A stretch of DNA of 64,000 nt from an uncultured Gammaproteobacteria bacterium (GTDB lineage Bacteria > Pseudomonadota > Gammaproteobacteria > Steroidobacterales > Steroidobacteraceae): positions 133,905-197,904 of the forward strand of contig CAWFWJ010000005.1 of the NCBI GenBank assembly GCA_963819545.1. Direction: 5' to 3'. Below are positions 1 to 47,219 of the stretch, one piece after another. Positions within the stretch are counted from its first letter, which is position 1. Each line of letters begins with the position of its first letter. The translations under genes and the position numbers were made by a program. The notes below the pieces were generated by a model, which was not told where the DNA came from, searched no databases, and worked only from the letters and a program-made list of their open reading frames with translations.

Positions 1-265
1 GCAGGCGGCATAAACCGGGATGCCGAGAGGGCCGAGGCTACGAATTGTCCCGAGCGCCGTGACGCTGCCGCCAAGTACGAGGACCGGCACCGCCGCCAGC
101 GGGCGTACCTCAGGGCTGGCCTTGTTGGCTTTTTGCATGGCGCGGTTTTGTAATACTACCGGATGAATGCCCTGCCTGCATGCTCCCAATTGGAGAATTT
201 GACGCGGTACACACAGCCGGCCGGACGGGCTTTACTATCATTGAATTCCCAGTGTGGGAGCACCG

Positions 266-1165
266 ATGCCGGTCTGGCCGAATCTTTTCATTGCGGGCGC
301 GCCCCGGTGCGGCACGTCTTCGCTCCACGCCTGGCTTCAGACGATTCCCGGGATCCACATGTCCCGAATCAAGGAGCCGAATTACTTTTCGCGCACGGTC
401 ATCGCGGACGATCATCCGATGGTGCAGCCGATCCGCGATGAAAAGCAGTACCTAAAGCTCTTCGCCGGAGCAGGGGACGCGAAAATCGTCGGGGAGGCCA
501 GTCCGAATTACCTCGAGGATCCAGAGGCGCCGATCCTTATCGATCGAACGGCACCGGGCGCCAAGGTTCTTGTGAGCCTGCGCGACCCTGTCGAACGGCT
601 CTTCTCCCACTACCTGATGATGCTGAACAACCGCCCATCGATGGGAAGTTTCATGGCGGAAATCGAGCGCGGCCTGTCGCTCCAGAGCAATAGAAGCCAG
701 GCCGTACTTGCTGCCGACACCGGTCTTTATTCCCGGCAGGTCGAGCGTTACCGGGGGATTTTCGGTGACCGGTTCAAAGTCCTGATCTTTGAGGAACTGA
801 TGGCCGATATTCCGGGAACGCTCCGGCAGGTTCTCGCATTTCTGGCCATCGACCATGACGTCAGCAACTTCTCAGATCAGCCCCAGCGGCAGTACAGCGA
901 GGTGCGCGGGTCGTTCGTGCGCTACCTGTTCGGGAATCGCATGATTTCCAGGGCCTCGGAGACGTTAATTCCATTCCGGATCAGAAAGCTGGTCCGCAAT
1001 ACATTTCTGATCAAGGACGCACCAAAGCCTCAAATGGGTCCCGAGGCGCGGGAGTTCCTCATCCGATACTATCGCGACGACGTTCTCCGCCTGGAGGATC
1101 TCCTGGGTCGCCGGCTTCCATGGCGAAACTTCGGTGACGAACCGCAGTCGCGAATTACCGGCTGA
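266..1165 (+). CDS. PAPS-type sulfotransferase family protein (ST-1)
   Basis: Intact ORF (track 254..1165). ATG 266 lies 5 nt after GGAG. Motifs GAPRCGTSS (5'-PSB loop) and SLRDPVERLFS (3'-PB-like). Confidence 0.8.
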   Translation: MPVWPNLFIAGAPRCGTSSLHAWLQTIPGIHMSRIKEPNYFSRTVIADDHPMVQPIRDEKQYLKLFAGAGDAKIVGEASPNYLEDPEAPILIDRTAPGAKVLVSLRDPVERLFSHYLMMLNNRPSMGSFMAEIERGLSLQSNRSQAVLAADTGLYSRQVERYRGIFGDRFKVLIFEELMADIPGTLRQVLAFLAIDHDVSNFSDQPQRQYSEVRGSFVRYLFGNRMISRASETLIPFRIRKLVRNTFLIKDAPKPQMGPEAREFLIRYYRDDVLRLEDLLGRRLPWRNFGDEPQSRITG

Positions 1166-1167
1166 TC

Positions 1168-4005
1168 GTGGCATCGGTGGCAGACCCCATGGCTCAAGTC
1201 GATTCGGGCTACCTGCTTCACGGGTGTTTCGAAGAACAGGCGGTCAGGACACCCGACGCGATCGCTCTGTACTGGAAGGAGCAGTCGGCCACATTCAGGG
1301 CGCTCAATGCCGCGTCCGACCGGGTGGCCGCTGCGCTGCGCTCCAGGGGGATCCGTGACGGAGCTACGGTTGCGCTTCACATGGAGCGCTCGATCCGGTT
1401 TGTCGTGGCGATGCTCGGAATCCTGAAATCGAACTCTGCCGTCGTGCCGCTACCGCCCTCCTATCCCGAGGGCCGGCTCCGGGAGATTCTGTCGTTCTCC
1501 GCCTTCGATGCAGTGATCGACGACGAGGACACGCGCCTCGGCGCGGGCCTCGACGACGGCGTCATCCATTTCGCGGAGCTCGAGAAGTTCCAGGGCGATC
1601 CGGGCGAGCGCGCCGCCGGCGGCTCGCATGAGCCCGCGTTCGTACTCTGTTCGTCGGGTTCCACCGGCCAACCGAAGATGATCGTGCGAAGTCACCGGTC
1701 GTTCTTCCATCGACTCAACTGGACGTGGGAGAACTGGCCCTACGGCGACGGCGAAGTCTGCTGCCAGAAGTCGCACATGACGACGACTCACTCGATCTAC
1801 GAGTTATTCGAGCCCTTGCTGCGCGGTGTTCCTGTTCACATCATCCCGGACGAGGGCGTGCGCAACCTCGAACAGTTCTGGGACACGATCCGGGCAAAGC
1901 GAATCTCGCGCTTGCTGATTGTGCCTTCAGTCCTGCAAGCCTCGCTCGACATGCCCGGTTTCGCCGCTCCGCCGGTCAAGGTCGTCGTTCTTATGGGTGA
2001 ATACCTGCACCCGAAGCTTGCAGGCAGGGCGCTCGGGGCCTTCCCGCCAGAAACGAAGATCTTTTCCATCTACGGCAGTACGGAGGCGAGCTCGACGCTC
2101 GTGTGCGACCTGCGCGAGTCCTGGCGGGACGACGAGGAACTTCCACTCGGCAAGTCAATTTCGCCGGAGGTCAGGGCCCTGGTGCTCGACCCGGCGTTGA
2201 CGGAGGTGGCCGCGGGCGAGAGCGGGCTGCTCCATATGGCGGGGCCGGCGCTCTTCACGGAGTACTTCAGGAACCCAGCGCTGACCTCGTCCGTATTCGT
2301 TCGTGCGTCGGGCGACGGAACGCTACTCTTCAACACGCACGACCAGGTGAGGCGGCTCGCGGACGGAAGCCTTCAGTTCGTCGGGCGTGTCGATCACACG
2401 GTCAAAGTCAGGGGATTTCGCGTCGATCTTGGCGAGGTGGAAAGGGCGCTCCAGCTTCATCCGGATCTCAAGCAGAGTGTCGTGATGCTCGGCGGACCTG
2501 CCGCGGAAAATCCGCCGCTTGTCGCGTTCTATACGCCAGCCATGGTCGATCACGCGGCCCTGTTGAACACCCTCAGGGACCGGCTGCCCGCTTACATGGT
2601 GCCGTCCGTCCTGGTGGGTCTCGAGTCGTTTCCGCTCTCGGCGAGCGGAAAGGTCGATCGCAGGACGCTACTTGAAGAATGGTCGAAGCGCCCTGCGGTT
2701 CCGGCAGCGGACGAGCTGCTTTCGGACACGGAGTCGCGCGTCGTCGAAGTGTGGCGGAAAGTGCTCAAGCATCGGGCGATCCAGCGCGAAAGCAATTTCT
2801 TCGAGGTCGGCGGCACGTCATTGTCTGTGTTTACCGCAGTTCATCAACTGAGGGCTGCCTTTGAACTGGATCGATCCCAGCTTTCCGACCACTCGGTGTA
2901 TAAGTTCCCGACTGTCCGGGAGCTGGCCACTTACATCGATGAGCTTCAGCGCGGCGGCGCGCCAAAGCTGCCCACGAGATCCGTAGTCGCCGTCACGCTC
3001 CGCAGCGGCGAGCCCGCGCGCCCACCGCTGTTCGTGATCGCGTCGTCAGGCGGAACGCTTGGGGCGTACGAGAAGCTCTCGAAGACCCTGACGACGACCC
3101 GTGAGATCGTCGGTATCCGCGATCCGTTCGTCTGGGGCGAGCGGGACCCGACGTCGGGATTCCAGGACTGGATCACGACCTATGTTGCGGCCATCCAGGA
3201 GCGGCAGCCTGCCGGTCCTTACTACGTTTGCGCGTTCTCCTCTGCGGGGGCGTTCGGCTACGAGATCGCGCAGCGGTTGCGCCAGGATGGCCAGGAGGTG
3301 GCGCAGCTCCTGCTAATCGATCCGATCGGGATTGCGGGCGAGGCCGACGAGGACTTTGGTTCTCGGGTTTTCCAGGCGATGTTCCGAGGACGGCGCAGCA
3401 AACTTGTCGTTCGCCTGGCGGGCTGGTGGCGCCTGATCACGGGCGCCGGCCGTCGGAGCAGCGCTGCGGTAGGAGAGAACGATTACGCGATGTCGCGGCA
3501 GGAGTTCGATCGCCGTGTCGCGGACGTACGTCGGGACCAGAAGATCATGAAGGATCTGTCGTCGCTATTCGAGCTGAATACAGCGTTGCCATTCACGATG
3601 TCCGACGACGACTTTTCCGGCAAGGATCCGGACGCGTACCTGGCGACTTTCCTGTCGCGCGTCAAAACGGTTACGCCGGACGTCGATGCGGAGACAGTCG
3701 AAAGGATCCTGGTCCAGTACTACTGCCTGCAGTTGCCGGCGACGCATTTCTACCGGCTCAAGAACTATGACGGCCGGGTCGAGATCTTCGAGCCCGAAGG
3801 CCCCCAGGTAGGGTTGCTCGCAGCCTACTTCAGACCGTATGTCAGAAACCTTCGCATTCGCGTCCTGAAGGCCGGCGCCCCGTCTGCCAGAACGCAGTTC
3901 GTCTGCGCGAATCTCAGTCGGAGCCTCCGGACGCATTACCGCAGCATGCGGGACGACACGTTCGTCGCCAACCTGTGCGCAGAGCTGGAGACCTTGCTGA
4001 GCTAG
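1168..4005 (+). CDS. NRPS-like adenylation / carrier protein / thioesterase tridomain enzyme
   Basis: Intact 945-aa ORF. A-domain cores SSGSTGQPKM, SIYGSTEAS, VKVRGFRVDLGEVE, SASGKVDR. Carrier motif FFEVGGTSLSVF. Alpha/beta-hydrolase nucleophile elbow FSSAGAFG with a long C-terminal region. GTG 1168 or ATG 1189 as start. Confidence 0.85.
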   Translation: MASVADPMAQVDSGYLLHGCFEEQAVRTPDAIALYWKEQSATFRALNAASDRVAAALRSRGIRDGATVALHMERSIRFVVAMLGILKSNSAVVPLPPSYPEGRLREILSFSAFDAVIDDEDTRLGAGLDDGVIHFAELEKFQGDPGERAAGGSHEPAFVLCSSGSTGQPKMIVRSHRSFFHRLNWTWENWPYGDGEVCCQKSHMTTTHSIYELFEPLLRGVPVHIIPDEGVRNLEQFWDTIRAKRISRLLIVPSVLQASLDMPGFAAPPVKVVVLMGEYLHPKLAGRALGAFPPETKIFSIYGSTEASSTLVCDLRESWRDDEELPLGKSISPEVRALVLDPALTEVAAGESGLLHMAGPALFTEYFRNPALTSSVFVRASGDGTLLFNTHDQVRRLADGSLQFVGRVDHTVKVRGFRVDLGEVERALQLHPDLKQSVVMLGGPAAENPPLVAFYTPAMVDHAALLNTLRDRLPAYMVPSVLVGLESFPLSASGKVDRRTLLEEWSKRPAVPAADELLSDTESRVVEVWRKVLKHRAIQRESNFFEVGGTSLSVFTAVHQLRAAFELDRSQLSDHSVYKFPTVRELATYIDELQRGGAPKLPTRSVVAVTLRSGEPARPPLFVIASSGGTLGAYEKLSKTLTTTREIVGIRDPFVWGERDPTSGFQDWITTYVAAIQERQPAGPYYVCAFSSAGAFGYEIAQRLRQDGQEVAQLLLIDPIGIAGEADEDFGSRVFQAMFRGRRSKLVVRLAGWWRLITGAGRRSSAAVGENDYAMSRQEFDRRVADVRRDQKIMKDLSSLFELNTALPFTMSDDDFSGKDPDAYLATFLSRVKTVTPDVDAETVERILVQYYCLQLPATHFYRLKNYDGRVEIFEPEGPQVGLLAAYFRPYVRNLRIRVLKAGAPSARTQFVCANLSRSLRTHYRSMRDDTFVANLCAELETLLS

Positions 4006-4009
4006 GGAT

Positions 4010-4763
4010 TCAGACCCACTTCCAGCATTGCACGGTGCCGACGGGTTCTCTGGTCGCAAGTGCCGCAACGAATTCCTTGGTGGGTGCCGCAATCGGTATC
4101 ACGCGGTTGCCGGCCTCAACACTGACATGCACGGAACCGATGCCCAATCCATGCAGTTTCACCAGTGCTTCCTGCCGAACCCAGTGCTCCAGAAAACGGA
4201 GTTCACGCAAGGTCTCGGAAAGTGAAGCAAGCTCGTCGTACTCTTCGGGCGTCGAGCATGCGCCTGGAAAGCTGCAGTGCATCGGGGATGCTGCGGATTC
4301 GCTCGACGTCGACTCCGACTTCCCCATCGAATCGCACTGCAATGAGTGCGAGTGCATCTGAAGCCGAGGCGTTGAACCGAAAGCGATCCATTCCCATCGC
4401 AGGCGAAAGTGAAGGTTTACCGAAGGCAGAGTAAGTAAATTGCAGCGATTCCGGTGCACGGTCCGCATAGCGGCCGAGAATCTGCCGGAGCATACCGCGC
4501 GCGGCGACGAATCTGGCGCGATCCTGCGCAAATCGGAATCGGTCAGCGCGCGCGACTTCATCCTCGGCGAGCAGGCGTTCCAGTTCGGCGAGATGGGGAG
4601 GGGTCACATCCACGTCGAATGCCCATACGTGGGTTTCGCCGCCACTCAAGGCGGGCCACGAAGATGGAACGCTCCAGGTGTGGCTGCTCAGCGTGCCGCT
4701 GCGGTCCGCGATGGCCGCGTATTGCCGAAGTGGGCGATCTGTTCCGCGCGCAACTGATCGCAC
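4010..4763 (-). pseudogene. Sfp-type 4'-phosphopantetheinyl transferase, one frameshift near 4255-4262
   Basis: N-terminal part in frame 4203..4763 (HVWAFDV, ARADRFRF, FGKPSL, GVDVERI). C-terminal part in frame 4010..4561 (STPEEYDELASL, WVRQEALVKLHGLG). Start uncertain because it overlaps the upstream gene end. Confidence 0.8.
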
Positions 4764-6017
4764 ACGCGACCCTTCGGGAGGACGACGTCCGAATAGCTGA
4801 GCGGCTGGTCCTTGGGAACGTCGCGCACCAGCTTGCAGTCGACCGACAACGACATCGGCAGGTAGCTGTGGTCCAAGCTGTCTCGTAGGTGTCGATCAGG
4901 CCGTAGCTGGTGAAGCCGCCCATGCCGTCGAGCATCTCGCCGGCCTTGCAGGTCGCGCTTGGCGTAGGCGACGGCCTCGCAGACCGGGGCGCCGAGCGGC
5001 GTCAGCGTCGGATCATGGTGAACAGCACGGCGCGCGCGACCGAGTGCGGCAGCTGCAGGTGCGGCAGGTGGTACGGCGTGTAGAACATGTAGAGCGGCCC
5101 GTCGCCGAACTTGAAGTACGCCATGTACTGGCGCTTGACCGGGTGGTCGTTGTAACCCATGACGAAGGCGCCCGTGTGGGGCTCGGCGCCGAGCACGAAA
5201 TCGACCAGGCCGCCGTCCTTGAAGTCGTCGCGGCGTGAAGTGGTTGCAGCAGGTCCTTCACGTGGGCGCACTCATGGCCGTACATGCCGAGCATGCCCGG
5301 CCGGAAGCCCGTGGCATTGCCGATGATCGCGGACTCGAGGGCGAGCTTGGAGCCGTCGGCGAAGGAGGCCACCATGGCGGGCTTCTGCTTGTGCTTCTCC
5401 GCGAATTCGCGCTGCGTGTCCGGGTTGCGGTAGCGGTTCGAGGAAGCCCTTGATCTGCCCCATCAGCACCGGCTTGTAGCCGATGCTGTCGACGAAGCGG
5501 TAGCAGGTTCATCGCCACGCCGGGCTCGTCGCCGTCCGTGTAGGTGTAGACGACGCCGTTGCGGTCGGCGTAGCACCTTCAGGATCGGGCCCGACGGCGG
5601 CGTCGGTCTCGGCGTTCATCAGGACGACGTGCTTGCCGTTGCGGATCGCCTCGAGCGCAGACCCGCGCGCCGGACTCGACGTCGCCCGTCGTCTCGATGA
5701 TGGCCTCGACGCCGCCGGCGCGGCAGAGCGACCGTCGGATCGTCGGTGACGGCGTAGACGCCCGCGGCCATCGCGGCCTCGAGCTCGCGCGGGCGAGCGC
5801 GACCGATCGGAACTCCGTCGCGCCGGCCTCGCGGTAGGCGCGCTCGGCCTGGTCTACGCGTCGCGGTTGGCGATCGCCACGAGCCGCAGTCCCGGGATAC
5901 GCGGTCAGGATCTGCGAGCGCGATGCCGCGGCCCATGTAGCCGGCGCCGACCATGCCGACGCGGACGGGATCGCCCGCGGCGAGCCGCTTCTGCAGCGCG
6001 GTGTCGACGATGATCAT
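4688..6017 (-). pseudogene. NAD(P)-binding oxidoreductase with C-terminal SAF domain (COG4091-like), multiple frameshifts
   Basis: N-terminus MIIVDTALQKRLAAGDPVRVGMVGAGYMGRGIA (5619..6017). Mid fragment GAFVMGYNDHPVKRQYMAYFKFGDGPLYMFYTPYHLPHLQLP (5002..5271). SAF-like end KLVRDVPKDQPLSYSDVVLP (4688..4876). Confidence 0.6.
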
Positions 6018-6053
6018 TGGGATCTCCTCGCGTCGCCTCGCGGCGGGCGACGC

Positions 6054-6606
6054 TCAGCATGAAGTCGGGCCAGTTCCGGTCCTGGTCCGAGACGACGCGG
6101 ACCGGGGCCGGCCAGGTGATGCGCGAACGCCGGGTCGTCGAAGCGGACGCCGCGCGCGGCGTCCGGCGCGTAGCAGGCCGAAGTGAAGTAGGTCAGCTCG
6201 GTGTCGTCCTTCAAGCGTCAGGTAGCCGTGGGCGCAGCCCTCGGGAGCGTAGAGCATGCGGCCGTTGTCCGGCGTCAGCTCCACGCCATCCAGCGCCGGA
6301 AGGTCGGGCGAGTCGGGCCGCAGGTCGACGACGACGTCGTAGACGGCGCCGCGCGTGCAGCGGACGAGCTTGACCTCGGCGTGCGGCGGCTCCTGGTAGT
6401 GCATGCCGCGAAGCGTCCGCGCCTGCGGGCTGCACGCCGGTATTGACCTGCGCGATGCGCGTCGACGAGGCCGTGCTCGGCGAACTCGTGCTCGCACCAG
6501 GTGCGCGCGAAAAAGCCGCGCTCGTCGCGGCCGGGCTCGAGATCGATCGACGAACGCACCCGCCACTGGTGCCCTCGGTGAAGATACCTTCGGACGTCTT
6601 CCAGAC
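6054..6606 (-). pseudogene. dTDP/CDP-sugar 3,5-epimerase (RmlC-type cupin), frameshifted
   Basis: Fragments in three frames: DERGFFARTWCEHEFAEHGL, GMHYQEPPHAEVKLVRCTRGAVYDVVVDLRPDSP, GRMLYAPEGCAHGYLTL, ELTYFTSACYAPDAARGVRFDDPAF. Confidence 0.7.
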
Positions 6607-7378
6607 CATCCAGGGACAATCGCCGCGCGCCTCCATGCGATCGAAGCGTGATCTTGTCCTTGAAGGTGTCCATCGCCTGCCAGAACCCGTCGTGGCGATA
6701 GCGCCGAGCAGGCTTCTTCTCGATCAGCCGCTGGAACGGCTGCTCGACCAGTTCCTCGCCCTCGCTGGATGTAGTCGAAGATCTCGCGCCGCAGCGACGA
6801 AGAAGCCGCCGTTGATGCGGAGCGCGTCGTCCGTGCATCGGGCCGATGCGACGTCGACGAGGCCGTCGGCGTCGGCGCTGCACCACGTGGAAGCTCTGCG
6901 ACGGGCGCACCGCGGCGAAGCTCGCGACCACGTTCTTGCGCTTGAATCGTCGCACATGCGGTCGAGCGGCAGGTCGCGACAGGCCGTCGGAGTAGTTCGC
7001 GAGGAACATGTCCTCGTCTCTCGACGTACTTGCGCACGCGCAGCAGGCGCTGGCCGATGTTCGAGTGCAGCCCGGTGTCGACGAACGTGATGCGCCAGTC
7101 CTCGATGTCGCGGCTGTGCAGCTCGACCTTGCTGGCCGCCGTCGGACAGCGTGAAGTCGTTCGACATGCACTCCTTGTAGTGCAGGAAGTACTCGCGGAT
7201 CAGGTCGCCGCGGTAGCCGAGGCAGAGCACGAAGTCCTTGTGGCCGAAGTGCGCGTAGTAGCGCATCAGGTGCCAGAGGATCGGCCGCGTAGCCGACGTT
7301 CACCAGCGGCTTCGGGATCGTGTCCGAGTGCTCGCGCAGCCGCGTGCCGAGCCCGCCGCAGAACAGCACGACTTTCAT
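6590..7378 (-). pseudogene. rfbF: glucose-1-phosphate cytidylyltransferase, frameshifted
   Basis: MKVVLFCGGLGTRLREHSDTIPKPLV at ATG 7378 (GGGAG upstream). HFGHKDFVLCLGYRGDLIREYFLHYKECMSNDFTL (6724..7266 frame). GFWQAMDTFKDKITL. 3' end approximate. Confidence 0.75.
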
Positions 7379-7401
7379 GGACTCCCGTCTCCTCCTGCGC
7401 C

Positions 7402-8762
7402 CTAGCGGCCGATGCCTTCGTACGTCGCGAACGCACTCGGGACGAACATGCGCCGCCCGTCGACGACGAGCGGCGTGCGGCCCAGTGCGCCGCAGCAGCG
7501 TCGGGCAGCCCTGCGAACTCCGCCCAGCGCGTGACGAGCACCACGACGTCGGCCTCGCCTCAACGCGTCCTCGAGCGTGGCTGCCGCGAGCCGGACGCCG
7601 CGCAGGTCCGGGTGGTACTCCGGCCGCGCGATCGGGTCGTAGGCCGAGACCTGGCGCCGGCGTCGCGGAGGAGCCGGAGGATCGGGAACGCCGGCGACTC
7701 GCGCAGTCGTCGGTATCCGGCTTGAACGCGAGACCGAGCACCGTGACCGCACGCCGCGCAGGTCCGGGATAGTGCTTGCGCGACCAGCGCGCAGCAGCTT
7801 CGTCCGGCTGCGTCGCGTTGATCTCGAGCACGCTGCGCGAGCAGCGGCATGTCGAGCCCGAGATCGCGCCCTTGCGCCACGAGCGCCGTGACGTCCTTCG
7901 GCAGGCAGCTGCCGCCGAAGCCGCAGCCGGCCTCGAGGAAGCTCGCGATGCCGGCCGTCACCGGCTCGGCCACCGGGCGGCGCGCGGTGAAGTAGGCCGA
8001 CGCGTGCACGCCGCGCATCACGTCGGCCACGTCGACGTCGCCGACGCGCGGAGCAGAGCCGGCCGATCTCGTTGAGAACGAGATCATCGTGGCGAGCACG
8101 CGAATTCGAGGCGTACTTGATCATCTCCGCCGTGCGTGTTGTTGGTGCGGATGCGCGGGCGCGGCCGTCGAACGCCGCGTAGAGCGTCTGCAAGTGCGTC
8201 CTGCGTGCGCGTCGTCGATGCCGCCGAGCACGATGCGGTCCGGCGCGCATGAAGTCCGCGACCGCCTGGCCTTCGGTCAGGAACTCGGGATTCATGCCGA
8301 GCCCGAAGTCCGCGACCCGCGACGCTTGCCGGAGGCCTGCCTCGAGCGCACGCGCGGACCACGCCGTCGGTGGTGCCCGGAATCACGGTGCTCTTCACGA
8401 CGACCGCGTGATAGCCTCGGCTTCGTCGCGCAGCGCCGCGCCGATCTCGCTGCGCGGCGCGCTCGACGTAGCTGCAGATCGATGCTTGCCCGTCGGCCGC
8501 CGGCGTGCCCGACCGCGATGAACGTGACGTCCGAGTCTGCGACCGCGCGCGGCAGGTCGGTCGTGGCGCGCAGCCGCTTGCCGACGTGCGCTTGAGCAGC
8601 TCCGGCAAGCCCGGCCTCGTGGATCGGGGCGCGGCCCGCGTTGATCGCTGTCGACCTTGGCCGGATCGAGGTCGACGCAGGTCGACGTCGTGGCCGCGCT
8701 CCGCCAGGCAGGCGCCCGGTGACGAGGCCGACATAGCCGGTGCCGACGATCGAGATCCGCAT
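7402..8762 (-). pseudogene. ugd: UDP-glucose 6-dehydrogenase family protein, multiple frameshifts
   Basis: MRISIVGTGYVGLVTG at 8762. ACLAERGHDV, VTFIAVG, MNPEFLTEGQAVADF, GGSCLPKDV, and end FVPSAFATYEGIGR, distributed over three frames. Confidence 0.75.
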
Positions 8763-8763
8763 C

Positions 8764-9899: not shown

Positions 9900-9918
9900 T
9901 GCATGACTCCTCGGCGCG

Positions 9919-10577: not shown

Positions 10578-10654
10578 CCCCAATCGATTGAATTTGCTGG
10601 CGGTAAGTGTCGCCGGAATGACCCTCCGCGACAACATGGCGGAGCCAACGCCGT

Positions 10655-11713: not shown

Positions 11714-11892
11714 AGCGGCTCCGGCGACGGCCGAGTCCTCCGGTGGGGCGGCCACCGTGACATTCAGGCCGGCGCGGCCAAGTGATCGCGCGGCGCTCAG
11801 CGAGTTCGGGACTCGCCCTGAGAATCAGTGCGTCCACGCATGACCTTGCGCCGGCGGCAGCCCGGGCTCGGAATCGGCGCGGGTCGTCGGGC

Positions 11893-12857: not shown

Positions 12858-12884
12858 CGCCCTCTTTGCGGAGCAAGAGGGGCG
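12858..12884 (+). promoter_or_regulatory. Shine-Dalgarno-sequestering hairpin, leader of FN3 lipoprotein paralogue 1
   Basis: GCCCTCTT (12859-12866) pairs with AAGAGGGGC (12875-12883). ATG lies 4 nt downstream. Same architecture at 13693-13718 and 14781-14803. Confidence 0.35.
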
Positions 12885-12887
12885 GGC

Positions 12888-13718: not shown

Positions 13719-13722
13719 TCGT

Positions 13723-36408: not shown

Positions 36409-36417
36409 CTCAGCCCA

Positions 36418-37176: not shown

Positions 37177-37183
37177 TCTGAGT

Positions 37184-37972: not shown

Positions 37973-38228
37973 TTATTCTGCCGTCTAGTGGTCCAGGCGG
38001 GCCCGCAGGCGCGAAAATGAGACCTCTGACTAGACTAGCCGGACGCGGGCTCTCAGAATTACGCGGGCCGCAGCATATCAATGGACTCAGCGTGACCCTA
38101 GCTCGACAGGCAGGCTACCTGCAGGCGTTGGAATCGGCAAGTTTCCAGGTTTTTTCGTTGAATAGGCGTCTGAGCGATCTGCTTGTCGGTTTTGAAAATA
38201 GACCGGGGCGCCATTCGATCATGAAAGT

Positions 38229-39236
38229 ATGACTGGTACGAGACTGATCGTTTCGCGCGCAATGATGGCCATTGGGGCGGGCCGCATCCTCGGCGCCCTT
38301 TCGCGGCCTTCATTGCTGGTCGTCAACTATCATAGGTTGCATCGATCCTCCGATCGACTGCGGTCTCGATTCGACGACGGCGTGTTTGGCCCGGACGTCG
38401 AAACGTTTCGCCGTCAGGTGGAATGGCTAAAGTCGGCCACCACGGTCCTGGACGAGGAAGGAGTGTTGAGCCTCCTGTCCGGCAAAGACTTGCCAAGGGG
38501 ATCGCTGCTGTCGGCGATAACTTTCGACGACGGCTACATTGACTGCTACACATTGGCTCGGTCCGTTCTCGAGAGCTGGGCGTACGCGGACTGTTCTTCG
38601 TACCTGTGGAAATGCTGGAGTCCCGACGACTCGGATGGTGGGACAGTGCCGCGTACCTCTTGAAGAAAACAAGGCATGAAAAGTTCACCTTGAATGATCA
38701 AACATTTGATTTGCGCAATGACTTCCGTGGATCGCTTAAACGGGTGCTCGCCCTGTTCAAGCTCGAGAAGGCCGAACGGACGGCGGGCTTGCTGGAAGAG
38801 CTTTCGCGTGCCTGCGAAGTCGCGTTCCCGGGAAGGACGAGCAGAGTGCAGAACTGCTGAATTGGAAGCAGGTTCGCGAGATGAAGAGCGCCGGTCACGG
38901 CATCGGTTCGCACTCGCTTTCGCACCGCGTGTTTCGACGCTCGAGCGGGCGGCGCAGGAGCATGAGATTCGAGAGTCGAAGCGTGAGCTCGAGGCAATCA
39001 TCGGCTCGAAGATCAGTTCGTTCGCATACCCGGTCGGCGGACGCGCGCACTACAATGCGGACAGCGTCGACCTGGCGCGTCAGGCAGGCTACTTATGTGC
39101 CTTCACGTTCAATACGGGCATTGCGAGGATTCCAGTCGCCGACCGGTTCCAGATTCCGCGGGAATCGGCAAACTCCCTGGAGGAGCTCAAGGCAAGGATG
39201 TGCCTGCCCGGAGTGATGGGCCTGGAAGATGGCTAG
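38229..39236 (+). pseudogene. NodB-type polysaccharide deacetylase, about 3 frameshifts
   Basis: AITFDDGYIDCY (motif 1), GIGSHSLSH (motif 2), FAYPVGG, over frames 38229, 38606, 38881 and 38694. Confidence 0.7.
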
Positions 39237-39246: not shown

Positions 39247-40149
39247 TTGAACCTCGGCGCGCTGCTTGACCAGCTAAGGTCAGTCGGGATTGCCATCGAC
39301 GAGGGCCCGGTCGTGCTCAGCGTCGCGAGGGACCTCAAGATCCTGCAGGTGGCAAGCGGCTCAACCCAGCGCTTCCTCCGGATACTGGAACGCGCCAATG
39401 GTGAACGGCACTTCGCGCACCTGCGATTTCTGGAAATGCGCCTCGGCGACCGCATCAATGCGCCCTCCAGCGTAATTACGACCGATGATCTCGCCTGCGG
39501 AGTGTTTCCATTCATTGCGCACTTCAAGGTCTCGCATGAGCAATTGGTTTCCGGAAATCTCCTTCCGGAAGTGGCGAAATCCCTAATTCTGATGCACGAG
39601 GCGGGGCGGGACTTTTGCGCCGCGGCAGCGCCGGTCGCCACGTTATTCAGGCCGGCGAGCGCATTCGAGAAAGAGACAAGCGAAGCTGCAACCCGATCGT
39701 GGCTCGAATGCACCCTGCGACACGTGACGGAGTCCCAGCCCGCGGTTGCGCAGCATTGCGACTTCACCTATGCGAATCTCGGCGTCGCGCAGCAGGGACG
39801 ACTCATCATCTTCGACTGGGAGGAATATGGGGCGATCACGTACCCGGCCTTCGATTTCACGACATTTCTGCTCGGTCACTACCACTTCGAAGGCGCGATC
39901 GGGCGCGCGCTCGATTCTCCCGCGGCATTGATCGATCTCATCAGCCGCGACTTCGGCAATGCGTTTCTCGGGGGCCTCGGCCTGACTGTCAAGGAGTACA
40001 CACGGGTGTTTCCGGCTTATCTGTTCACCTTCCTCACACTGAAGCAGGGCGGCTTCAGCGCCGCGATCAACAGGCGCATGCAATCCATGTGGTCGAAATT
40101 GCTCCAGTCAGGGGAATGGGCGAGCGCGATGAAAACACCTGTTTCCTAG
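39247..40149 (+). CDS. aminoglycoside-phosphotransferase-fold kinase-like protein
   Basis: Intact 300-aa ORF (non-ATG start). Brenner-type HCDFTYANLGV followed by IIFDWEEYG. Confidence 0.55.
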   Translation: MNLGALLDQLRSVGIAIDEGPVVLSVARDLKILQVASGSTQRFLRILERANGERHFAHLRFLEMRLGDRINAPSSVITTDDLACGVFPFIAHFKVSHEQLVSGNLLPEVAKSLILMHEAGRDFCAAAAPVATLFRPASAFEKETSEAATRSWLECTLRHVTESQPAVAQHCDFTYANLGVAQQGRLIIFDWEEYGAITYPAFDFTTFLLGHYHFEGAIGRALDSPAALIDLISRDFGNAFLGGLGLTVKEYTRVFPAYLFTFLTLKQGGFSAAINRRMQSMWSKLLQSGEWASAMKTPVS

Positions 40150-40166
40150 CACAGGGTGGACGCCAG

Positions 40167-41037
40167 ATGAGTCCGGTCTCGCCAATTCCGCTTGAAGCCA
40201 TGGCGCTCTTCGTGAGCGAGCTGAAGTCCGGCGACCTGCACTGGCGCAGCGTGCTCTCGGAACCTCGCTTCGAGATGCTGCACTGTCGCCAGCGCTGGTT
40301 CACTGACCGTCAAAAGGGAATGTTCTTCCGGTTGCTGTCGCCGCCGCGTCGGGAGGCATTCCTCGAGATCCAGGCAGGATCCGGCATCGTGAGCTCATGC
40401 CTGAGCGAGGATTTCAAGCGCGGCTACGCGTGGGAACGCCGACCCGCGTGCGCCGACTTCATGGAACTCCGGTTTCGATCCGATTCAATCGTTAACCTGG
40501 AAATCCTGCGTGCCAGCGGGTCCGAGATCGCGCTGCCCGACGAAAGCCTCGACCTTGTCGCAATCAACGAACCGATTTCGATGGAGCGAGCCACGTTCGC
40601 AGGTTCAGATGCTGAGGAATTCGCTCTCGCGATCCTGCGCGAAGCCCTGCGATGCCTTCGCCGCACGGGCCGCCTCATCATGGCTGTCGACAACGCTTGG
40701 CACTATCCGAGTCTCGGAACACCTTTCGAGCCGTTTCTCGAGCGCATCCACGGTCGAAATGCGACCTCGAAGCGGCCGCGGTTACCGGAGACTCGTGAAT
40801 CGTGCCGGGCTCCGGAAAGCGCGCCTGTTCACCGTGAAGCCACGTCGGCATATGCCAATCGACATCTACAGCCATCACCGAGTCTCTCTGGATCAGCTCT
40901 ACCGGAAGTATGACAGCCGCAGCCGGTCCGCCGCCGATCAAGTGGCGTCCGAACCGGCGGGCATGCCGTATCTGGCTGCGTATTTCCAGCCCCTTACTAT
41001 CTCGTCTGCGAAAGGTAGGTCGGCGCTTGCGCTATGA
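40167..41037 (+). pseudogene. class I SAM-dependent methyltransferase-like protein, one frameshift near 40760
   Basis: ATG 40167. FLEIQAGSGIVSSCL (motif I-like), LDLVAINEP, GRLIMAVDN. Tail GYRRLVNRAGLRKARLFTVKP in frame 40510..41037. Confidence 0.5.
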
Positions 41038-42386
41038 CCGGTCCCGGTGGATCGGTGAGGTCTCGATGCCGATGCGTCCAGGACCTTGTGGCGCATGACG
41101 AGGTTCCAGGTGATCAAAGTCATCGACGTCGCGACGGCGGCGCCAATGGCGCCCCAGATCGGGGTCAGCGACAAGTTTAGCACGAGGTTGATCGACGCGC
41201 CAAGGAAGATCGCCCTGGTTGTATCGCGCTCGTGGCCAGTCATGTTCAGGAGCGAAGCGACCGAGCCCATGGAGGCATTGATGAGTTGACCGGCACATAG
41301 AATGACGAGCGGAACGTACGCATCCTTGAACTCCGGCCCAAATGCGAATTCGAATGAAAAACTTTCCGAAAGCACGATCAGGATGACGGACACCAGCGCG
41401 AACAGGGCCACCGCCTGCGAGCTTTTCGTGATCATCTTCTGCAGCTTCTTCATGTCCCCGGTCGCGTAGAGGTGCGCCACGTGCGGGCCCTGAATGGCGT
41501 TGACCGTCTTCAGGCCGAAGATGACCAGCAGGGCAATCTGCATCGCGACTCGATAGATGCCGACTTCGGAGTGGTCGCGGAACATGCCCAATGCCAGGAT
41601 GTCGGTCCGCCCGTTGATCAACTGCAGCGCGGCGGTCATTCCGAACGGTATGCAGCTTTGCAGCCAGAGCGACGCCTGGAACCGGGGCGTCGCGCGGGCG
41701 ACTTCCGGGGGCCGGTGGCGAAGAACAGGAAGACGCCGCATAAGAACGCAATGGTCACCGAGCCGACCTGCGCCAGCATCGCGTCATCGGCGGAATCGAG
41801 GCTGCGGCCGAACAATGGAAGCAGCAGGAGAAGCGCGAGCAGGGCCGCAGGCCGGATGACCTGTTCAGGCAGCTGGCCCAGGATGACTTTCCGCAGACCG
41901 CGGAGCATGGAGCCGCGAAGCGCCCCAAGCGAAATGAGCGGCACCAGCAGGAGTGCCATCCACATGGCCTTCAGCTTTGCCGGCTCGAAGCGGTCGCCCC
42001 ACAGGTACAAGGCAGCTCCGCCGGCGACGATGAGCACGAGGCTCAGCACGCCCGTCATGCGGTGCGCCCAGTTGAGGAAGCCGCGCATGTGACCCCAGTC
42101 CTTGCGGGCATTCGCCACGGCAACTTCGCGCACGGCGAGATTCGGGATCCCGAGTTCAGAAGGGATACAAAAAAAGGCGACGAGAGCCATCACCAATGAG
42201 TAGGTGCCGTACCCGGATGGACCGAGGGATTTCGCCAGCACCATCGCGACGAGGAATCCAATGCCGCTGAAAGCAAGCCTGAGGCCGGTGGTGCCGAGTG
42301 ACGCCCTTGACGAGGGCCGAACCGAGCTTCCCCTGGCGTGCCAGCCGAGCGTCGACGCGCTTCACGATCTGCTTGAAGCTAATCAT
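41032..42386 (-). pseudogene. Wzx-type (MOP superfamily) polysaccharide flippase no. 2, frameshifted
   Basis: MISFKQIVKRVDARLARQGKLGSALVKGV, VLAKSLGPSGYGTYSLVMALVAFFCIPSELGIPNLAVREV, IGAAVATSMTLITWNLVMRHKV, over three frames. Confidence 0.7.
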
Positions 42387-42468
42387 GCGCAGGAATTGTA
42401 GCCTGCGAGCGAGGCGAGGAGGCGTTGCGCGCGAGGTCGCGCACGCGCTGTCAATTGCGTGCTAATTG

Positions 42469-44010
42469 TCAGTTGACGATCACGAGCACGACGATCGCGA
42501 GAAGCGTGATGCCGCCGGCGAGCGCGAAGTCGACCACTCGCTTGCGCCGCATTCCGTAGTGTTCTGCATCGGCGGAATGTGCGCGAATGGTTGCGCCCCG
42601 GCGAGCGCGACGACGTCCGAGCTGCCGCGGACGGTCGTGTCGGTCGCATTCATGATGAAAGCCGTGCCGATGCCGGCGCGCGATCGCAAGCACGATCGCG
42701 AGGAACATCAGCGCGACGCGATCCGGCTCGATCGGGTCTGTCCGGGATCCGCGCAGGATTGATCAGGACGTAGGTTTCGGTGGCCGACGAGCCGGCCGCC
42801 TTGCTGCGCAGCTCCGCCGATCGCCTGCTGCGCGCGCATCTGCTCATACTGCGACTTGATGACCTCGTAGTCGCGCACGAGCTCCTGGTACTGTTCCTCG
42901 AGCCGCGGCGAAAGCGTGACCGCGCCTTGCAGCGCTGTAGAGCTGGCTCGAGATCGCGGCGCGGCGCGCCGAAAGTTCCCGGATTTCGATGGCTGCCGCA
43001 GTTCGACTGGCGACTCGAGCTGGATGATAGGCCGGGTTCGTCGGCGGCGCCTGCCGGCCGCCTGCGGCTTCCGTCGCTCAACGTCGCGATCTCGCGCCGC
43101 AAGCGTCGAACATCCGGGTGGTCCTCGCTGTACTTCGCAAGCGCGGCGACGAGTTCCTGCTGGGCGGCGGCCAGCCGATCGGCGCCGCCCATGACGATCT
43201 GGCCGGTCTCGTCGATCGTACGGCGACTGTCGCGCGGCGTGTCGCGAAGCTGGGCGTCGAGCAGGTCCCTGCGGGCCCGCGCCGCGCGCAGGTCGGCATC
43301 GATCGCCGCGAGCTCGCGCTCGAGGGACATCGCGCGATCCTGGTTCCTCACGCGATCGTCCGGCAGACCGCCCGGGTTCTTCTCCCGGAACTCGGTCAAG
43401 CTTGCGCCTCGCGCACGCGAAGCTCCTCGGCGAGCCGCTCGGACTCGGATTTGGCGAATTCGATCGAGCGCTGGGCGTCTTCCTTGGCCTGCGTCGCGCT
43501 CGAGGAGACGAAGAGGTCCGCCAGCTCGTTGGCGACGTCCGTCGGCAGCCTTCGGGATCGGAATGCCAGAATCCGACGTCGAAGGCGTAGGTCAGTTCGG
43601 CGGAGCGCATCGATGCGCGGGTCGATGACGCCCGTGACCTGCGGCGTGATGAAGACATTCTCCTTGAACTCAGCGATCTGGGTTTCGTCCGGCGGCTGTC
43701 GCCCTCGAAGTCCGTACAGCTTGTAGCTGTTTGATCAGAGCGCTGACGTTTTCGTCGGTCAGCACGCGCTGGCGAGTGCGCTGCAGGCGCTGCTCGACGT
43801 ACTCCTGCGTGCCCGCGCCGCCGGCCAGTTCGACCGGCATGTCCATGTTGCTCGATGAGCAGCGTCGCCCTGGATTCGTAGACCGCCGGCAGCAGAAACA
43901 CGAAGCAGGTCATGGCCAGCAGCACGGCAAACGCAGCGATTGCGGCGGGTCGCGCGCGTTTCCTGAGGATCTTGCAGGAAATCGAGAAACGTCTGTTCGT
44001 CTGCTTTCAT
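42469..44010 (-). pseudogene. Wzz/GumC-type polysaccharide chain-length determinant (PCP, membrane-periplasmic part), frameshifted
   Basis: MKADEQTFLDFLQ at 44010. N-terminal TM LLAMTCFVFLLPAVYESRATLLIEQ. Long coiled-coil segments (LERELAAIDADLRAA, VRRLRREIATL). C-terminal TM FALAGGITLLAIVVLVIVN. Confidence 0.7.
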
Positions 44011-44012: not shown

Positions 44013-45005
44013 CCCGCTCCGCCTCGAAGTAACCAACTGCCCCTGCCTGAAAGCTCAGCACCGAATCGATCTGGTAGTCACGGACCTGCCGGGCGTGCGT
44101 GAAGATGATCAGTTCGCCGAGCAGCCCGAGCGCGAAGAGCTGCAGTCCCAGCACGACCAGCAGCGTCGAAAGCAGCAGCGCCGGCCGCTGCGTCAGACCC
44201 TGGCCGAAGAACAGTCGTTCGATGACGAGCCAGGTCACGAGCAGGGCGCCGATCGCGAACAGCGTGACGCCTATCATGCCGAAAAACCGCAGCGGCTTCT
44301 TGGTGAAGCGCACCAGGAAGAAGACCGTGAATATGTCCAAAAACCCGCGCGCATAGACGCGGGGCTCGTAGATGCCCTCGTGGCGGTCCTTCGGCGACTG
44401 GCGGACGTCCATCTCGCTGACACGGAAACCCTTGCGGTCGGCCAGCACCGGCAGGAAGCGATGCTGGTCGCCGTAGAGCTGGATTTCCTCCAGCACGCGC
44501 CGGTCGAAGGCGCGGGCGCCGCAGCCGAGGTCGCGGTAACTGAGGCCGGTGACCCAGGCAAGCAGGCCGTGGAATGCCCCGCGGCGCATGCGCTCGAACG
44601 GGCCGCCGGCGCGCGGCCAGCGACGCGCGATGGCGAGGTCGCAGTCGCTCGAGCGCCGCGACGAGCTTCGGCAATTCTCGACGCCTCGATCTGGAAGTAG
44701 GCGGGCAGGGTGACGATGACGCTGGCCGGTGGCCTGCTCGAAGCCCGGCCATGATGGCGGTCGCCTCGCCGAACGTGCGCGTGAGGCTCACGACCGTGAT
44801 GCGGTGCGCCGTCGGCCGCCAGTCGCTTGAGGCCCGGCCGCGAAATCTTCGCGCGGGCCGTCGAGCACGAAGATCATTTCGTAGCGTCGGCCGAGCGCGT
44901 CGAGGCCGGCGCGGTACTCGGCGTAAAGCTCGACGGGATCCGCATGCCGGCCGCCGACCGGAATGATCACCGACAGGTCGACGGGCTGACTGCGGGTTCA
45001 CTCAT
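44013..45005 (-). pseudogene. GtrB/ArnC-like polyprenyl-phosphate glycosyltransferase (GT2) no. 2, frameshifted
   Basis: ATG 45005 overlaps the upstream stop by 8 nt. DLSVIIPVGGRHADPVELYAEY, LSYRDLGCGARAF, QLYGDQHRFLPVLA. Two C-terminal TM helices with GELIIF. Confidence 0.65.
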
Positions 45006-45969
45006 GCGGAATGCTTCTCCAGACCTTGCCGGTCAGGCGCGAGAAATCCAGGTCGCGCACGTCGCCGGAACGGTAAATGAGCTCGCCGAGGACGCCGCCG
45101 CAGATCAGGATGAAGGCGGACATCAGCAGCAGGACGCCGGTGCCGGCCACCGGCAGCGACATGCCGACATCCGTCGCGGCCCAGCGCCACAGCGCATAGC
45201 CGAGTGCGATCGAACCGAGCGCGACGAGCGGCATGGCCAGCAGGCTGAACCAGAGCAGCGGCCGCGAGGTGAACGAGGCGACCGTCTTGATCACCATGAG
45301 ATCGAGCAGAACCTTGTAGATGCGCGACAGGCCGTACTTGGACTGGCCGAACTGGCGCGCGTGGTGGCGGACCTTGATTTCGGCGATGCGCGGGCCGGCG
45401 ATCGATGCCATCGCCGGGATGAAACGGTGCATCTCGGAGTACAGCGGGATTTCCTTGATCAGCGCCCCGCGGTAGGCCTTCAGCGAGCAGCCGTTGTCCT
45501 TGATCGGCACGCCGGTGACCTTGCCGATCAGCCAGTTCGCGATCCGTGACGGGATCTTGCGCGAGATCAGCTTGTCCTGCCGGTTGAAGCGCCAGCCGAC
45601 GACGATGTCGTAGCCCTCGTCGATCTTGGCCAGGAAATGCTCGATGTCCTTGGGGTCGTTCTGCAGGTCGCCATCCATCGTCACGAGCACCCGGCCGTGG
45701 GCCTGCTCGATGCCGGCCGCCATGGCCGGGGTCTGGCCATAGTTGCGGCGGAACTTGACGACACGCACCCGTTCGTCCTGCCGCGCGATCTCGGTCGCCA
45801 CTTCGAGCGTGCGGTCCCGGCTGCCGTCGTCCACGAAGACCATCTCGAATGGGATGCCGAGCGGCTCCACGGCCTCCACGATCGCCGCGTGCATGGCGCG
45901 TATGCTTTCCTCTTCGTTGTAGAAGGGCACGATCACGGACAGGTCGGGCTCGGATGTCATACGCTTCAT
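44998..45969 (-). CDS. GtrB/ArnC-like polyprenyl-phosphate glycosyltransferase (GT2) no. 1
   Basis: Intact 323-aa ORF. LSVIVPFYNEEESI, VFVDDGSRDRT, RRNYGQTPAMAAGI, TMDGDLQNDP. Two C-terminal TM helices with GELIY. Confidence 0.85.
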   Translation of the reverse strand: MKRMTSEPDLSVIVPFYNEEESIRAMHAAIVEAVEPLGIPFEMVFVDDGSRDRTLEVATEIARQDERVRVVKFRRNYGQTPAMAAGIEQAHGRVLVTMDGDLQNDPKDIEHFLAKIDEGYDIVVGWRFNRQDKLISRKIPSRIANWLIGKVTGVPIKDNGCSLKAYRGALIKEIPLYSEMHRFIPAMASIAGPRIAEIKVRHHARQFGQSKYGLSRIYKVLLDLMVIKTVASFTSRPLLWFSLLAMPLVALGSIALGYALWRWAATDVGMSLPVAGTGVLLLMSAFILICGGVLGELIYRSGDVRDLDFSRLTGKVWRSIPHE

Positions 45970-46003
45970 TTTCGCAGCCTAAGCGCTGCAACGGCTCGGT
46001 CTT

Positions 46004-47219
46004 ATGTCACGAAACCAGAAAGGCGCAGCAGATCAATAAGTTAAGAATTGCTGTCGTTGCGGCCTGTCCGTTTCCCGTGCCGCGAGGCACTCCCATACGC
46101 ATCCTGCGGCTGGCGGAGGCCGATTGCCGACCGTGGGCACGAGGTCCACGTCGCGACCTACCACCTCGGCTCTGGACCGGTGGCGCCCAACGTCCACGTT
46201 CACCGAATCGGCGACGTGCCGTTCGTACCGCAAGCTCGGCCCGGGTCCGACCTCGCAGAAGCTGCTCCGGGTCGATCCGGCACTGACCCTGCTGCTGCGC
46301 AGGCTCCTTCGCAGCCGATCGTTTGACATTATCCATGCCCACCACTTCGAGGGCCTCCTGGTCGGCGCGGCCGCGCGAGTCGGGCTCGACGTACCGCTGG
46401 TGTTCGACGCCCACACGCTGCTGATGTCGGAATTGCCCTACTACTCGCTCGGGCCTGCCGGCGTCAGCCAAAGCGGGCATGGGCCGATGGATGGATCGCT
46501 GGATGCCGCGGTCTCGCCGAGCACACGGTCTGCGTGACGGAGACGATTCGGGACAAGCTGGTCGAGCAGGCGGGCATGGATCCGGGCAAGGTCTCGGTCG
46601 TCGCGAATGGCACCGAGGTCGATCACTTCGACCCGGCAAGAGCCAGGACCGACGCAGGCCCTTGGACGGCAAGACGCTGATTTTCACGGGAAACCTGGCC
46701 GAGTATCAGGGCATCGATCTGATGCTAAAGGCTTTCCGACATGTCGTTGCCCGCGTGACCGATGCACGCCTCGTGATTGCCACGGACTCGTCGTTTGCAC
46801 CCTACGAAGACCTCGCGCGCGAACTGGGGATTCGCGATCGGATCGACCTGATCGAGTCGCCAGCCTTTGGCGAGTCTGCCGGGATTGCTGGCGGGCGCGG
46901 ATATCGCCCTCAATCCACGGACAAATTGCGATGGCGTGCCCGTCAAGCTCCTGAACTACATGGCGGCCGCCCGGCCGGTGGTTTCGTTCGACTCGGCGGC
47001 GCCCGGGCGTGACGACATGGCCGGACCGGCTGGCTGGTCGAGAGCGGCAACGTCGAAGCGTTCGCCGACGGAATCGTAGGACTCCTACAAGACTCCGCGT
47101 CGAGCGGAGGAGATTGGCCGGGCGGCGAGGGATTATGTCATCGAGAATTTGCAGCTGGCCGAAGGCTGCGGAGCACTGCGAGCGAATTGTATCGGGACCT
47201 TCGGAGTCGTATGACATAA
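46004..47219 (+). pseudogene. family 4 (GT-B) glycosyltransferase, frameshifted
   Basis: LRIAVVAACPFPVPRGTPIRILRLAEA, IIHAHHFEGLLVGAAA, LIFTGNLAEYQGIDLMLKAF, LNPRTNCDGVPVKLLNYMAAARPVV. Likely end ELYRDLRSRMT with TAA 47217-47219. Confidence 0.65.

Follow-up and report, generated by a model that had tools for sequence, protein, structure and literature searches.

Six sulfotransferase-superfamily genes in a Wzx/Wzy-type locus of an uncultured Steroidobacteraceae bacterium point to a sulfated exopolysaccharide

Within a 64,000-nucleotide (nt) stretch of DNA from an uncultured, soil-type Steroidobacteraceae bacterium (contig CAWFWJ010000005.1, positions 133,905 to 197,904; here, the window), six genes of the 3'-phosphoadenosine 5'-phosphosulfate (PAPS) sulfotransferase superfamily are embedded in what its gene content marks as a Wzx/Wzy-dependent exopolysaccharide (EPS) or capsule locus of roughly 45 kb. 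These genes predict a sulfated EPS or capsule assembled by the Wzx/Wzy route, with a lipid-linked repeat unit that would be sulfated at several positions before flipping. We assign this reading a probability of about 0.68. A first-pass annotation of the same DNA had predicted a heavily sulfated polymer; both heavy sulfation and a count of six sulfated positions would be extrapolations from gene content.

We refer to the six genes as ST1 (254/266-1165, + strand), ST2 (18185-19096, +), ST3 (24001-24980, +), ST4 (31305-32108, -), ST5 (36418-37176, +), and ST6 (37184-37972, -). Translation of these intervals recovered all 12 of the motifs that the first-pass annotation had quoted, each where it had been placed, and every gene (6/6) carries both a 5'-phosphosulfate-binding (5'-PSB) loop and the Arg...Ser strand-helix of the 3'-phosphate-binding (3'-PB) site. 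Five of the intervals (ST1, ST2, ST4, ST5, and ST6) are open reading frames (ORFs), as had been claimed for all six; ST3 is not. A loose 5'-PSB pattern matched 12 times in the six-frame translation, compared with 7.8 +/- 2.8 times in Markov simulations. Because this is near the level of chance, the two-motif signature is weak alone, and profiles and folds carry the case.

The gathering cut-offs of the Pfam sulfotransferase families lie at 22 to 27 bits, and the five intact genes score 39 to 56 bits. ST1, which has an ATG at 266, belongs to a lineage resembling the heparan sulfate (HS) 3-O-sulfotransferases (3-OST) and N-deacetylase/N-sulfotransferases (NDST), with matches to Sulfotransfer_3 (55.7 bits, E 1.1e-14) and Sulfotransfer_1 (3e-6). 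Among PDB sequences it matches the Alicyclobacillus sulfotransferase 3RNL (E 5.8e-33), HS 3-OST-3 (1e-9), and the NDST sulfotransferase domain (2.7e-5). ST4 is NodH-like (Sulfotransfer_3, 45.7 bits, E 1.2e-11), matches the NodH structure 9vki (E 1.2e-5), and is 55% identical to its orthologue on the related metagenome contig L003. ST5 is Stf0/NodH-like, with hits to both Sulfotransfer_3 (39.2 bits, E 1.2e-9) and Stf0 (23.5 bits, E 4.5e-5); ST6 is Stf0-like (PF09037, 41.7 bits, E 1.2e-10; Sulfotransfer_3, 36.8 bits, E 6.4e-9). ST2 is NodH/Stf0-like (Sulfotransfer_3, 42.2 bits, E 1.4e-10). ST2 and ST6 have no relatives at the sequence level in PDB, and are 22 to 32% identical to ST4 and ST5. In NCBIfam, ST6 reaches 27.9 bits against the trehalose 2-sulfotransferase equivalog, whose cut-off is 400; the other sulfotransferases have no match there, and none of the six attains the level of a Stf0 or NodH equivalog.

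The boundaries of ST2 are less simple than its profile match. Its interval is open but lies within a longer open frame (17321-19096), into which the C-terminal membrane segments of the upstream flippase read with no intervening stop (junction 18150-18190). GTG at 18185 is a plausible start and is overlapped by a TGA in another frame (GTGA), and the final ~40 codons look non-coding. Two readings are equally likely: a fusion of flippase and sulfotransferase, or an ordinary GTGA start/stop overlap that an indel close by conceals.

The first-pass annotation called the six genes paralogues, a description that comparison among them does not bear out. Pairwise BLASTP identities among ST2, ST4, ST5, and ST6 are just 22 to 32% (29% for ST2 and ST4), and ST1 and ST3 have no significant BLASTP similarity to the remaining sulfotransferases. 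By sequence, the six genes represent three or more distant lineages rather than recent paralogues, which suggests that the encoded enzymes might use different acceptors or positions.

Structure models were made for the ST5 and ST3 families, and ST1 and ST4 match solved sulfotransferases directly by sequence. The AlphaFold 2 model of the ST5 family (pLDDT 91.7) has 27 PDB matches at E<=1e-3, and all 27 are PAPS sulfotransferases, including Stf0 (1TEX), tyrosylprotein sulfotransferase (TPST), HS 3-OST, and 3RNL, with TM-scores of 0.41 to 0.56. The 34 homologues aligned for this family share an invariant loop (G9-T-Q-R-T-G14) and an invariant R124 and S133. An exact-protein look-up of ST5 gave no match. 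By inspection, the N-termini of the sulfotransferases lack an apparent signal peptide or membrane anchor, which fits the use of cytoplasmic PAPS.

ST3 (24001-24980, +) is broken in the assembly. The interval holds six stops in the frame originally assigned to it and is therefore not an ORF. Aligning window positions 23950-25000 in a frameshift-aware manner to P0121, a homologue in a Steroidobacteraceae metagenome-assembled genome (MAG), called for six indels of one base each, near positions 24280, 24363, 24431, 24484, 24570, and 24638; an in-frame stop lies at 24322-24324. The frame-corrected product of 315 residues is 48% identical to P0121 (148/308) and keeps both GSGRSGTTW and IVRHPGAVIES. 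The ST3 family numbers 883 matches at E<=1e-5, and most of the members listed carry a precomputed PF13469 hit; in the family alignment, G8-T13, R149, and S157 are invariant. Its profile finds only weak matches among PDB sequences (E 0.02 to 0.05), and these are confined to the CurM and olefin synthase (OLS) sulfotransferase (ST) domains. As comparison at the sequence level was weak, we turned to a structure model. With the AlphaFold 2 model of the family (pLDDT 89.8, pTM 0.88), every one of the top 26 PDB matches (E up to about 0.03) is an enzyme of the PAPS sulfotransferase fold. The CurM ST domain, TPST1/2, and the OLS ST domain head the list, and at E<=1e-3 this model and that of ST5 match only sulfotransferases. 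By its motifs and modeled fold, ST3 is a sulfotransferase-fold gene; it is probably intact in the organism, and its frame breaks are most likely an assembly error. Taken together, profiles and models support the assignment of all six loci to the PAPS-sulfotransferase superfamily.

The context in which these genes lie was found to be of the Wzx/Wzy type, as first annotated. Annotation relied on Pfam and NCBIfam searches of intact ORFs and frame-corrected translations. A frame-broken priming transferase (15274-16690, +; Bac_transf 7.7e-65, CoA_binding_3) passes the TIGR03023 equivalog for WcaJ, the undecaprenyl-phosphate glucose phosphotransferase, after frame correction (469 bits against a cut-off of 410.75). 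The first Wzx flippase (16700-18184, +; Polysacc_synt 2.4e-20) is the gene in frame with ST2, and the second, frame-broken (41062-42393, -), shares 56% identity with a Polysacc_synt protein of L003. The Wzy-type polymerase is likewise frame-broken (24953-26380, +; Wzy_C 2.2e-15, 57 bits against 31.7), with three indels relative to the homologue on contig L004. Export functions are represented by a frame-broken set at 20098-22980 (+), identified by Pfam and by tblastn to L004, which comprises an outer-membrane beta-barrel protein, a Wza-like export protein (Poly_export and SLBB domains; Poly_export 76.9 bits against a cut-off of 28), and a tyrosine-autokinase-like P-loop ATPase. A chain-length determinant of the polysaccharide copolymerase (PCP) type with a GNVR domain (42472-44010, -) was recognized through its L003 homologue; its scores for GNVR (20.3 bits against 27.7) and TIGR03007 (170 against 278.85) are both below cut-off, to which its 15 single-base indels may contribute.

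In total, the locus holds nine glycosyltransferases (GTs) besides the priming enzyme. These are a GT2 at 19006-19945 (-; Glycos_transf_2 4.3e-30), a frame-broken GT4 at 23152-23990 with its 5' end near 22980 (+; Glyco_trans_1_4 2.3e-24), a GT4 at 30095-31276 (+; Pfam), a GT4 at 32116-33249 and a GT2 at 33283-34623 (both -; Pfam), a PMT_2/ArnT-like GT-C enzyme at 34645-36408 predicted to act on the periplasmic side (+; PMT_2 2.4e-12), two ArnC-like GT2 polyprenyl-phosphate glycosyltransferases at 44035-45969 (-; tblastn; Glycos_transf_2 3e-37; 276 bits in two stretches with the ArnC model, below its cut-off), and a frame-broken GT4 that marks the right edge of the locus at 46195-47300 (+; Glyco_trans_1_4 3e-23).

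This inventory suggests the following pathway. The WcaJ-type enzyme would place glucose-1-phosphate on undecaprenyl phosphate, and eight Leloir-type glycosyltransferases would then assemble the repeat unit on the cytoplasmic face of the membrane. PAPS-dependent sulfotransferases without signal peptides would add sulfate esters to particular hydroxyls, possibly also amines, of the lipid-linked unit; since PAPS is available only in the cytoplasm, sulfation would precede flipping. Wzx would flip the unit and Wzy polymerize it, with a side sugar possibly added in the periplasm by the ArnC-like/ArnT-like pair. Export of the polymer would involve the chain-length determinant, the kinase-like ATPase, the Wza-like protein, and the beta-barrel protein.

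Relatives of the locus retain its arrangement. A search with ST5 found 161 homologues at E<=1e-5, almost all metagenomic. From Wzy through the ArnC-like pair, the gene order of their contigs follows that of the window, with sulfotransferases kept at the same positions. These colinear metagenome loci hold two to four sulfotransferases each (four on a 29-kb JGI contig and on L003, three on L001 and on L004). The closest, L030, shows 86 to 93% protein identity across GT4-GT2-PMT_2-ST5-ST6, and ST3 sits between GT4 and Wzy in all relatives. A 492-aa conserved protein with a C-terminal choice-of-anchor Q domain (26600-28078, +; no Pfam match, NCBIfam NF041518 3.5e-13) is found near Wzy in all colinear loci at 35 to 66% identity. 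We also surveyed a data set of one genome per species, anchoring loci on an ST5 relative (n=25). The closest ST5 relative there, at 61%, is in a Steroidobacteraceae MAG, and the 25 also include two methanotrophs in culture, Methylolobus aquaticus and Methylotetracoccus oryzae. At least two sulfotransferases lie within +/-10 kb in 18 of these 25 loci, with a maximum of four. Single-sequence phmmer missed most sulfotransferases of related loci, so a motif pre-screen confirmed by Pfam was used; Sulfotransfer_3 was matched by all 26 additional candidates that the motif or a weak similarity had flagged. ST1-like genes stand directly beside ST5-like genes in other polysaccharide-type loci (L014-L016, L018). 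The first-pass annotation had leaned on the rarity of sulfated bacterial polysaccharides, an argument weakened by the frequency of multi-sulfotransferase polysaccharide loci in environmental Gammaproteobacteria and by published cases in Synechocystis and Vibrio (PMC8205485, PMC11641403).

In colinear relatives, a sulfotransferase gene directly follows the deacetylase gene (L003, 12910-13836; L001, 4176-5123, with a 4-nt overlap), and by analogy this pair resembles a split N-deacetylase/N-sulfotransferase. The corresponding slot in the window, after a polysaccharide deacetylase gene that is broken by three single-base deletions (38226-39236, +; Polysacc_deac_1, tblastn and frameshift alignment), is occupied by an APH-like kinase gene (39247-40149) and a class I methyltransferase gene (about 40170-40913), both on the + strand (39247-40913; APH 6.9e-6, Methyltransf_11). 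We considered 39247-40149 as a seventh sulfotransferase and rejected it on its Pfam APH match and HxDxxxxN...D kinase motif.

Several observations weigh against a multiply sulfated polymer. The corrected ST3 scores 19.5 bits with Sulfotransfer_3 (PF13469), and its intact homologue 22.9, both below the gathering cut-off of 27 that the other five genes exceed, and hhalign aligns the ST3 family with the ST5 family at a probability of just 11.7%. TM-scores of the models to solved sulfotransferases are modest (0.4 to 0.56). ST1 adjoins a nonribosomal peptide synthetase (NRPS)-like gene and may serve a product other than the polymer. The sulfotransferase fold includes enzymes that do not retain sulfate in their product, and the CurM and olefin synthase ST domains are among the closest structures to ST3. 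No cysC, cysDN, or cysQ gene, APS kinase, or ATP sulfurylase was seen in the window, in agreement with the first-pass annotation; this check was a profile search over most of the window, with about 52-59 kb and 62-64 kb covered by eye alone. The genes for PAPS supply may be elsewhere in the genome. Finally, indels present in the genome itself would leave much of the locus nonfunctional.

These points bear on other explanations to different degrees. Some or most of the sulfotransferases might act on a target other than the polymer, such as a lipid, a peptide product, the core of lipopolysaccharide (LPS), lipid A, or a free sugar, which we consider unlikely. Under this explanation, ST1 may work with the NRPS-like adenylation/carrier/thioesterase protein, a phosphopantetheinyl transferase (PPTase), and an acyl-CoA-binding protein (ACBP) on an acylated or peptidyl product. 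Consistent with this, ST1 ends 3 nt before the NRPS-like gene, at the locus edge, and the PPTase gene is convergent to it; the presence of ST1-like beside ST5-like genes in four polysaccharide-type loci argues the other way. ST6, whose best Pfam family is Stf0, may by analogy sulfate a disaccharide as Stf0 does trehalose, yet its score falls far below the cut-off for trehalose 2-sulfotransferases. The nearest solved relative of ST4, NodH, acts on a lipo-oligosaccharide or LPS. Against a non-polymer target for the group as a whole, ST2 through ST6 are intermixed with genes for glycosyltransferases, Wzx, and Wzy, an arrangement conserved in colinear loci.

It is more improbable still that the product carries fewer sulfates than there are genes, whether through transient sulfation or through lost activity in at least one of them. 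ST3 would be the candidate for the former, as it could turn a hydroxyl into a leaving group in the manner of CurM and olefin synthase. The ST domains of those enzymes are known to sulfate a hydroxyl for this purpose, they lead the structural neighbors of the ST3 family together with TPST, and they are its sole sequence matches in PDB. The similarity is nonetheless at the level of the fold only (14 to 18% identity), ST3 has no adjacent thioesterase or decarboxylation partner, and its place between GT4 and Wzy is constant among relatives.

The prediction of a sulfated polymer also depends on how the many frame changes in the window are read. We traced the frame path from codon usage and placed indels by frameshift-aware alignment to homologues on related contigs. 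Positions 1-4005, 26.6-38.0 kb, and 55.7-62.4 kb show no within-gene frame change, whereas in 4-26.4 kb and 38-55.4 kb the frame changes every 100 to 300 nt, amounting to dozens of changes over about half of the window. In the aligned genes only single-base insertions or deletions were found: three each in the deacetylase, the second flippase, Wzy, and the beta-barrel protein, one in the export protein, 15 in the chain-length determinant, and none in three control genes from a clean block. Despite its 15 indels, the corrected chain-length determinant is stop-free and 75% identical to its L003 homologue. The housekeeping gene typA (53.5-55.3 kb) is hit as well; it is read in four frames with about three indels, and its product is 92 to 95% identical to intact Steroidobacteraceae TypA. 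High identity after correction, the lack of stops in the chain-length determinant gene, and the damage to typA together mark the frameshifts as consensus errors of the assembly and not gene decay. Homopolymer density does not explain where the indels fall. Their uneven, block-wise spread is what speaks for a decaying locus, in which ST3 and many export genes would be pseudogenes and no polymer would be made, but we reject pseudogenization, as a very remote prospect, on the identity of the chain-length determinant and on typA, with corrected genes 48 to 75% identical to their homologues and holding few or no stops, every indel a single base, and a further long metagenome contig, L002, fragmented in like manner.

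Beyond the genes named so far, the left part of the locus begins with the NRPS-like adenylation/carrier/thioesterase gene (945 aa; 1168-4005, +; Pfam AMP-binding 1e-59, PP-binding, and Thioesterase; NCBIfam adenylation models below cut-off). A frameshift-riddled block on the - strand follows (4054-12114). From 4.05 kb onward, Pfam searches of its frame-corrected translations identify an Sfp-type PPTase, a DRL/SAF oxidoreductase, an RmlC-like epimerase, and a nucleotidyltransferase, and then a UDP-glucose/GDP-mannose dehydrogenase, an NAD epimerase/dehydratase, and a PIG-L deacetylase; the 5' part that completes the block, toward 12.1 kb, received no assignment. The NRPS-like gene adjoins the convergent Sfp-type PPTase gene (1168-4600), and an ORF with an ACBP domain lies at about 14400-14700, at the locus edge; the three may attach an acyl or aminoacyl group or, together with ST1, make a product of their own. 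This ORF stands among three lipoprotein-like units with He_PIG and fibronectin-III (fn3) domains (12880-15137), diverged tandem copies with 66 to 80% DNA identity just upstream of the priming transferase gene. He_PIG proteins flank the polysaccharide locus of the Steroidobacteraceae MAG GCA_050738495.1 as well. An AsnB-like glutamine amidotransferase (GATase_7, Asn_synthase) is encoded at 28248-30125 (+).

The two ArnC-like GT2s, the deacetylase, and the ArnT/PMT_2-like GT-C form a module reminiscent of the Arn pathway; the Pfam family of the deacetylase includes NodB and ArnD. This module suggests that a lipid-linked donor supplies a side sugar, which would be added in the periplasm.

To the right of the locus lie genes for a sigma-54 response regulator, a lipoprotein, a histidine kinase, GalE, an SrkA-like kinase, TypA, and a PAS-GGDEF-EAL protein. 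The same flank (regulator, lipoprotein, kinase, GalE, SrkA, TypA, GGDEF-EAL) adjoins the polysaccharide locus of GCA_050738495.1, which indicates that a variable polysaccharide island occupies a conserved site in the chromosome. The G+C content drops to 0.54-0.58 at 24000-32000 and 36000-38000 compared with about 0.65 in the flanks, and such a low-G+C center is typical of horizontally exchanged, variable polysaccharide islands. A megablast search of 20 kb against plasmids gave no match. Three intergenic palindromes resembling repetitive extragenic palindromic elements, at 53438-53528, 55350-55446, and 59236-59375, share the core GAAGGGGACGTTCACCTTC and have arms of 33 to 58 nt that are 94 to 100% complementary.

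One close published parallel is the synechan (xss) cluster of Synechocystis sp. PCC 6803, a Wzx/Wzy-type EPS cluster with two sulfotransferases, whose authors were in 2021 aware of no other bacterial EPS cluster with such genes (PMC8205485). In both loci, genes for glycosyltransferases, a flippase, a polymerase, and a chain-length determinant are interleaved with PAPS-type sulfotransferase genes of distinct subfamilies. They differ in number, with two sulfotransferases in xss against five or six here, and in setting, as xss lies on a cyanobacterial megaplasmid with the regulators XssQ/R/S, none of which was seen in the window locus. The ArnC/ArnT-like periplasmic module, the NRPS-like module, and the AsnB-like amidotransferase are in turn particular to the window locus. 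The number of xss genes roughly matches the sugar-to-sulfate stoichiometry of the product (PMC8205485).

A second parallel is the sulfated-capsule cluster of Vibrio sp. KMM 8419, with three sulfotransferases plus cysNDC, the structure of whose product has been solved (PMC11641403). It too is a gammaproteobacterial polysaccharide cluster with several sulfotransferase genes, but its assembly depends on an ABC transporter whereas that of the window locus is of the Wzx/Wzy type. Its authors regard cysNDC within the cluster as a hallmark (PMC11641403); in the window, profile searches over most of its length and inspection of the rest found no PAPS genes.

The individual enzymes have their own counterparts. 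The fold and PAPS motifs (R-x-G-S/T in the 5'-PSB, R...S in the 3'-PB) are shared with rhizobial NodH/LpsS-type and mycobacterial Stf0 enzymes, ST4 relating to NodH (9vki) and ST5 and ST6 to the Stf0 family and 1TEX. Identity to NodH/Stf0-type enzymes is just 15 to 22%, the NCBIfam equivalog cut-offs are not reached, and the acceptors here would presumably be lipid-linked repeat units, in contrast to the Nod factor (NodH) or trehalose (Stf0). ST1 aligns over about 195 residues to animal 3-OST-3 and NDST. The window locus has a deacetylase gene too, but a kinase-like gene and not a sulfotransferase gene follows it, and unlike the heparan sulfate systems of animals the locus shows no sign of a glycosaminoglycan backbone. 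In NCBIfam, the export protein, the kinase-like ATPase, the chain-length determinant, and the amidotransferase all match XrtA/PEP-CTERM models best; we rejected an XrtA/PEP-CTERM system, with all of these models scoring below cut-off and no exosortase in the profile-searched stretches.

Nevskiales MAGs recovered from microbial mats are reported to contain sulfotransferase genes (PMC9723792), and for the sulfated polymers detected by chemical means in granular sludge and microbial mats the producers and pathways are not known (PMC10483923, PMC9723792). We offer, as a tentative extension that we would not yet favor, that multiply sulfated EPS with at least three sulfates per repeat unit may be a routine product of Steroidobacteraceae and of many other non-marine Gammaproteobacteria, cultured methanotrophs among them, possibly with N-sulfate introduced through a split deacetylase-plus-sulfotransferase pair. 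If so, these bacteria would be candidates for the source of the sulfated "glycosaminoglycan-like" polymers that chemical analysis detects in sludge and in the matrix of biofilms, contradicting the published view of sulfated EPS as essentially a cyanobacterial trait.

Sulfated bacterial polysaccharides are wanted as heparin-like and carrageenan-like materials. This locus and its relatives supply candidate enzymes of three sulfotransferase lineages in a defined Wzx/Wzy context, from a widespread group represented in this analysis by metagenome assemblies only, and the related sulfotransferase pairs of the cultured methanotrophs Methylolobus and Methylotetracoccus are directly testable. The presence of sulfotransferases inside an EPS cluster is an established idea; the window locus surpasses the published examples in both the number and the diversity of its sulfotransferases, and the gain over those systems is one of breadth and enzyme diversity and not a new principle.

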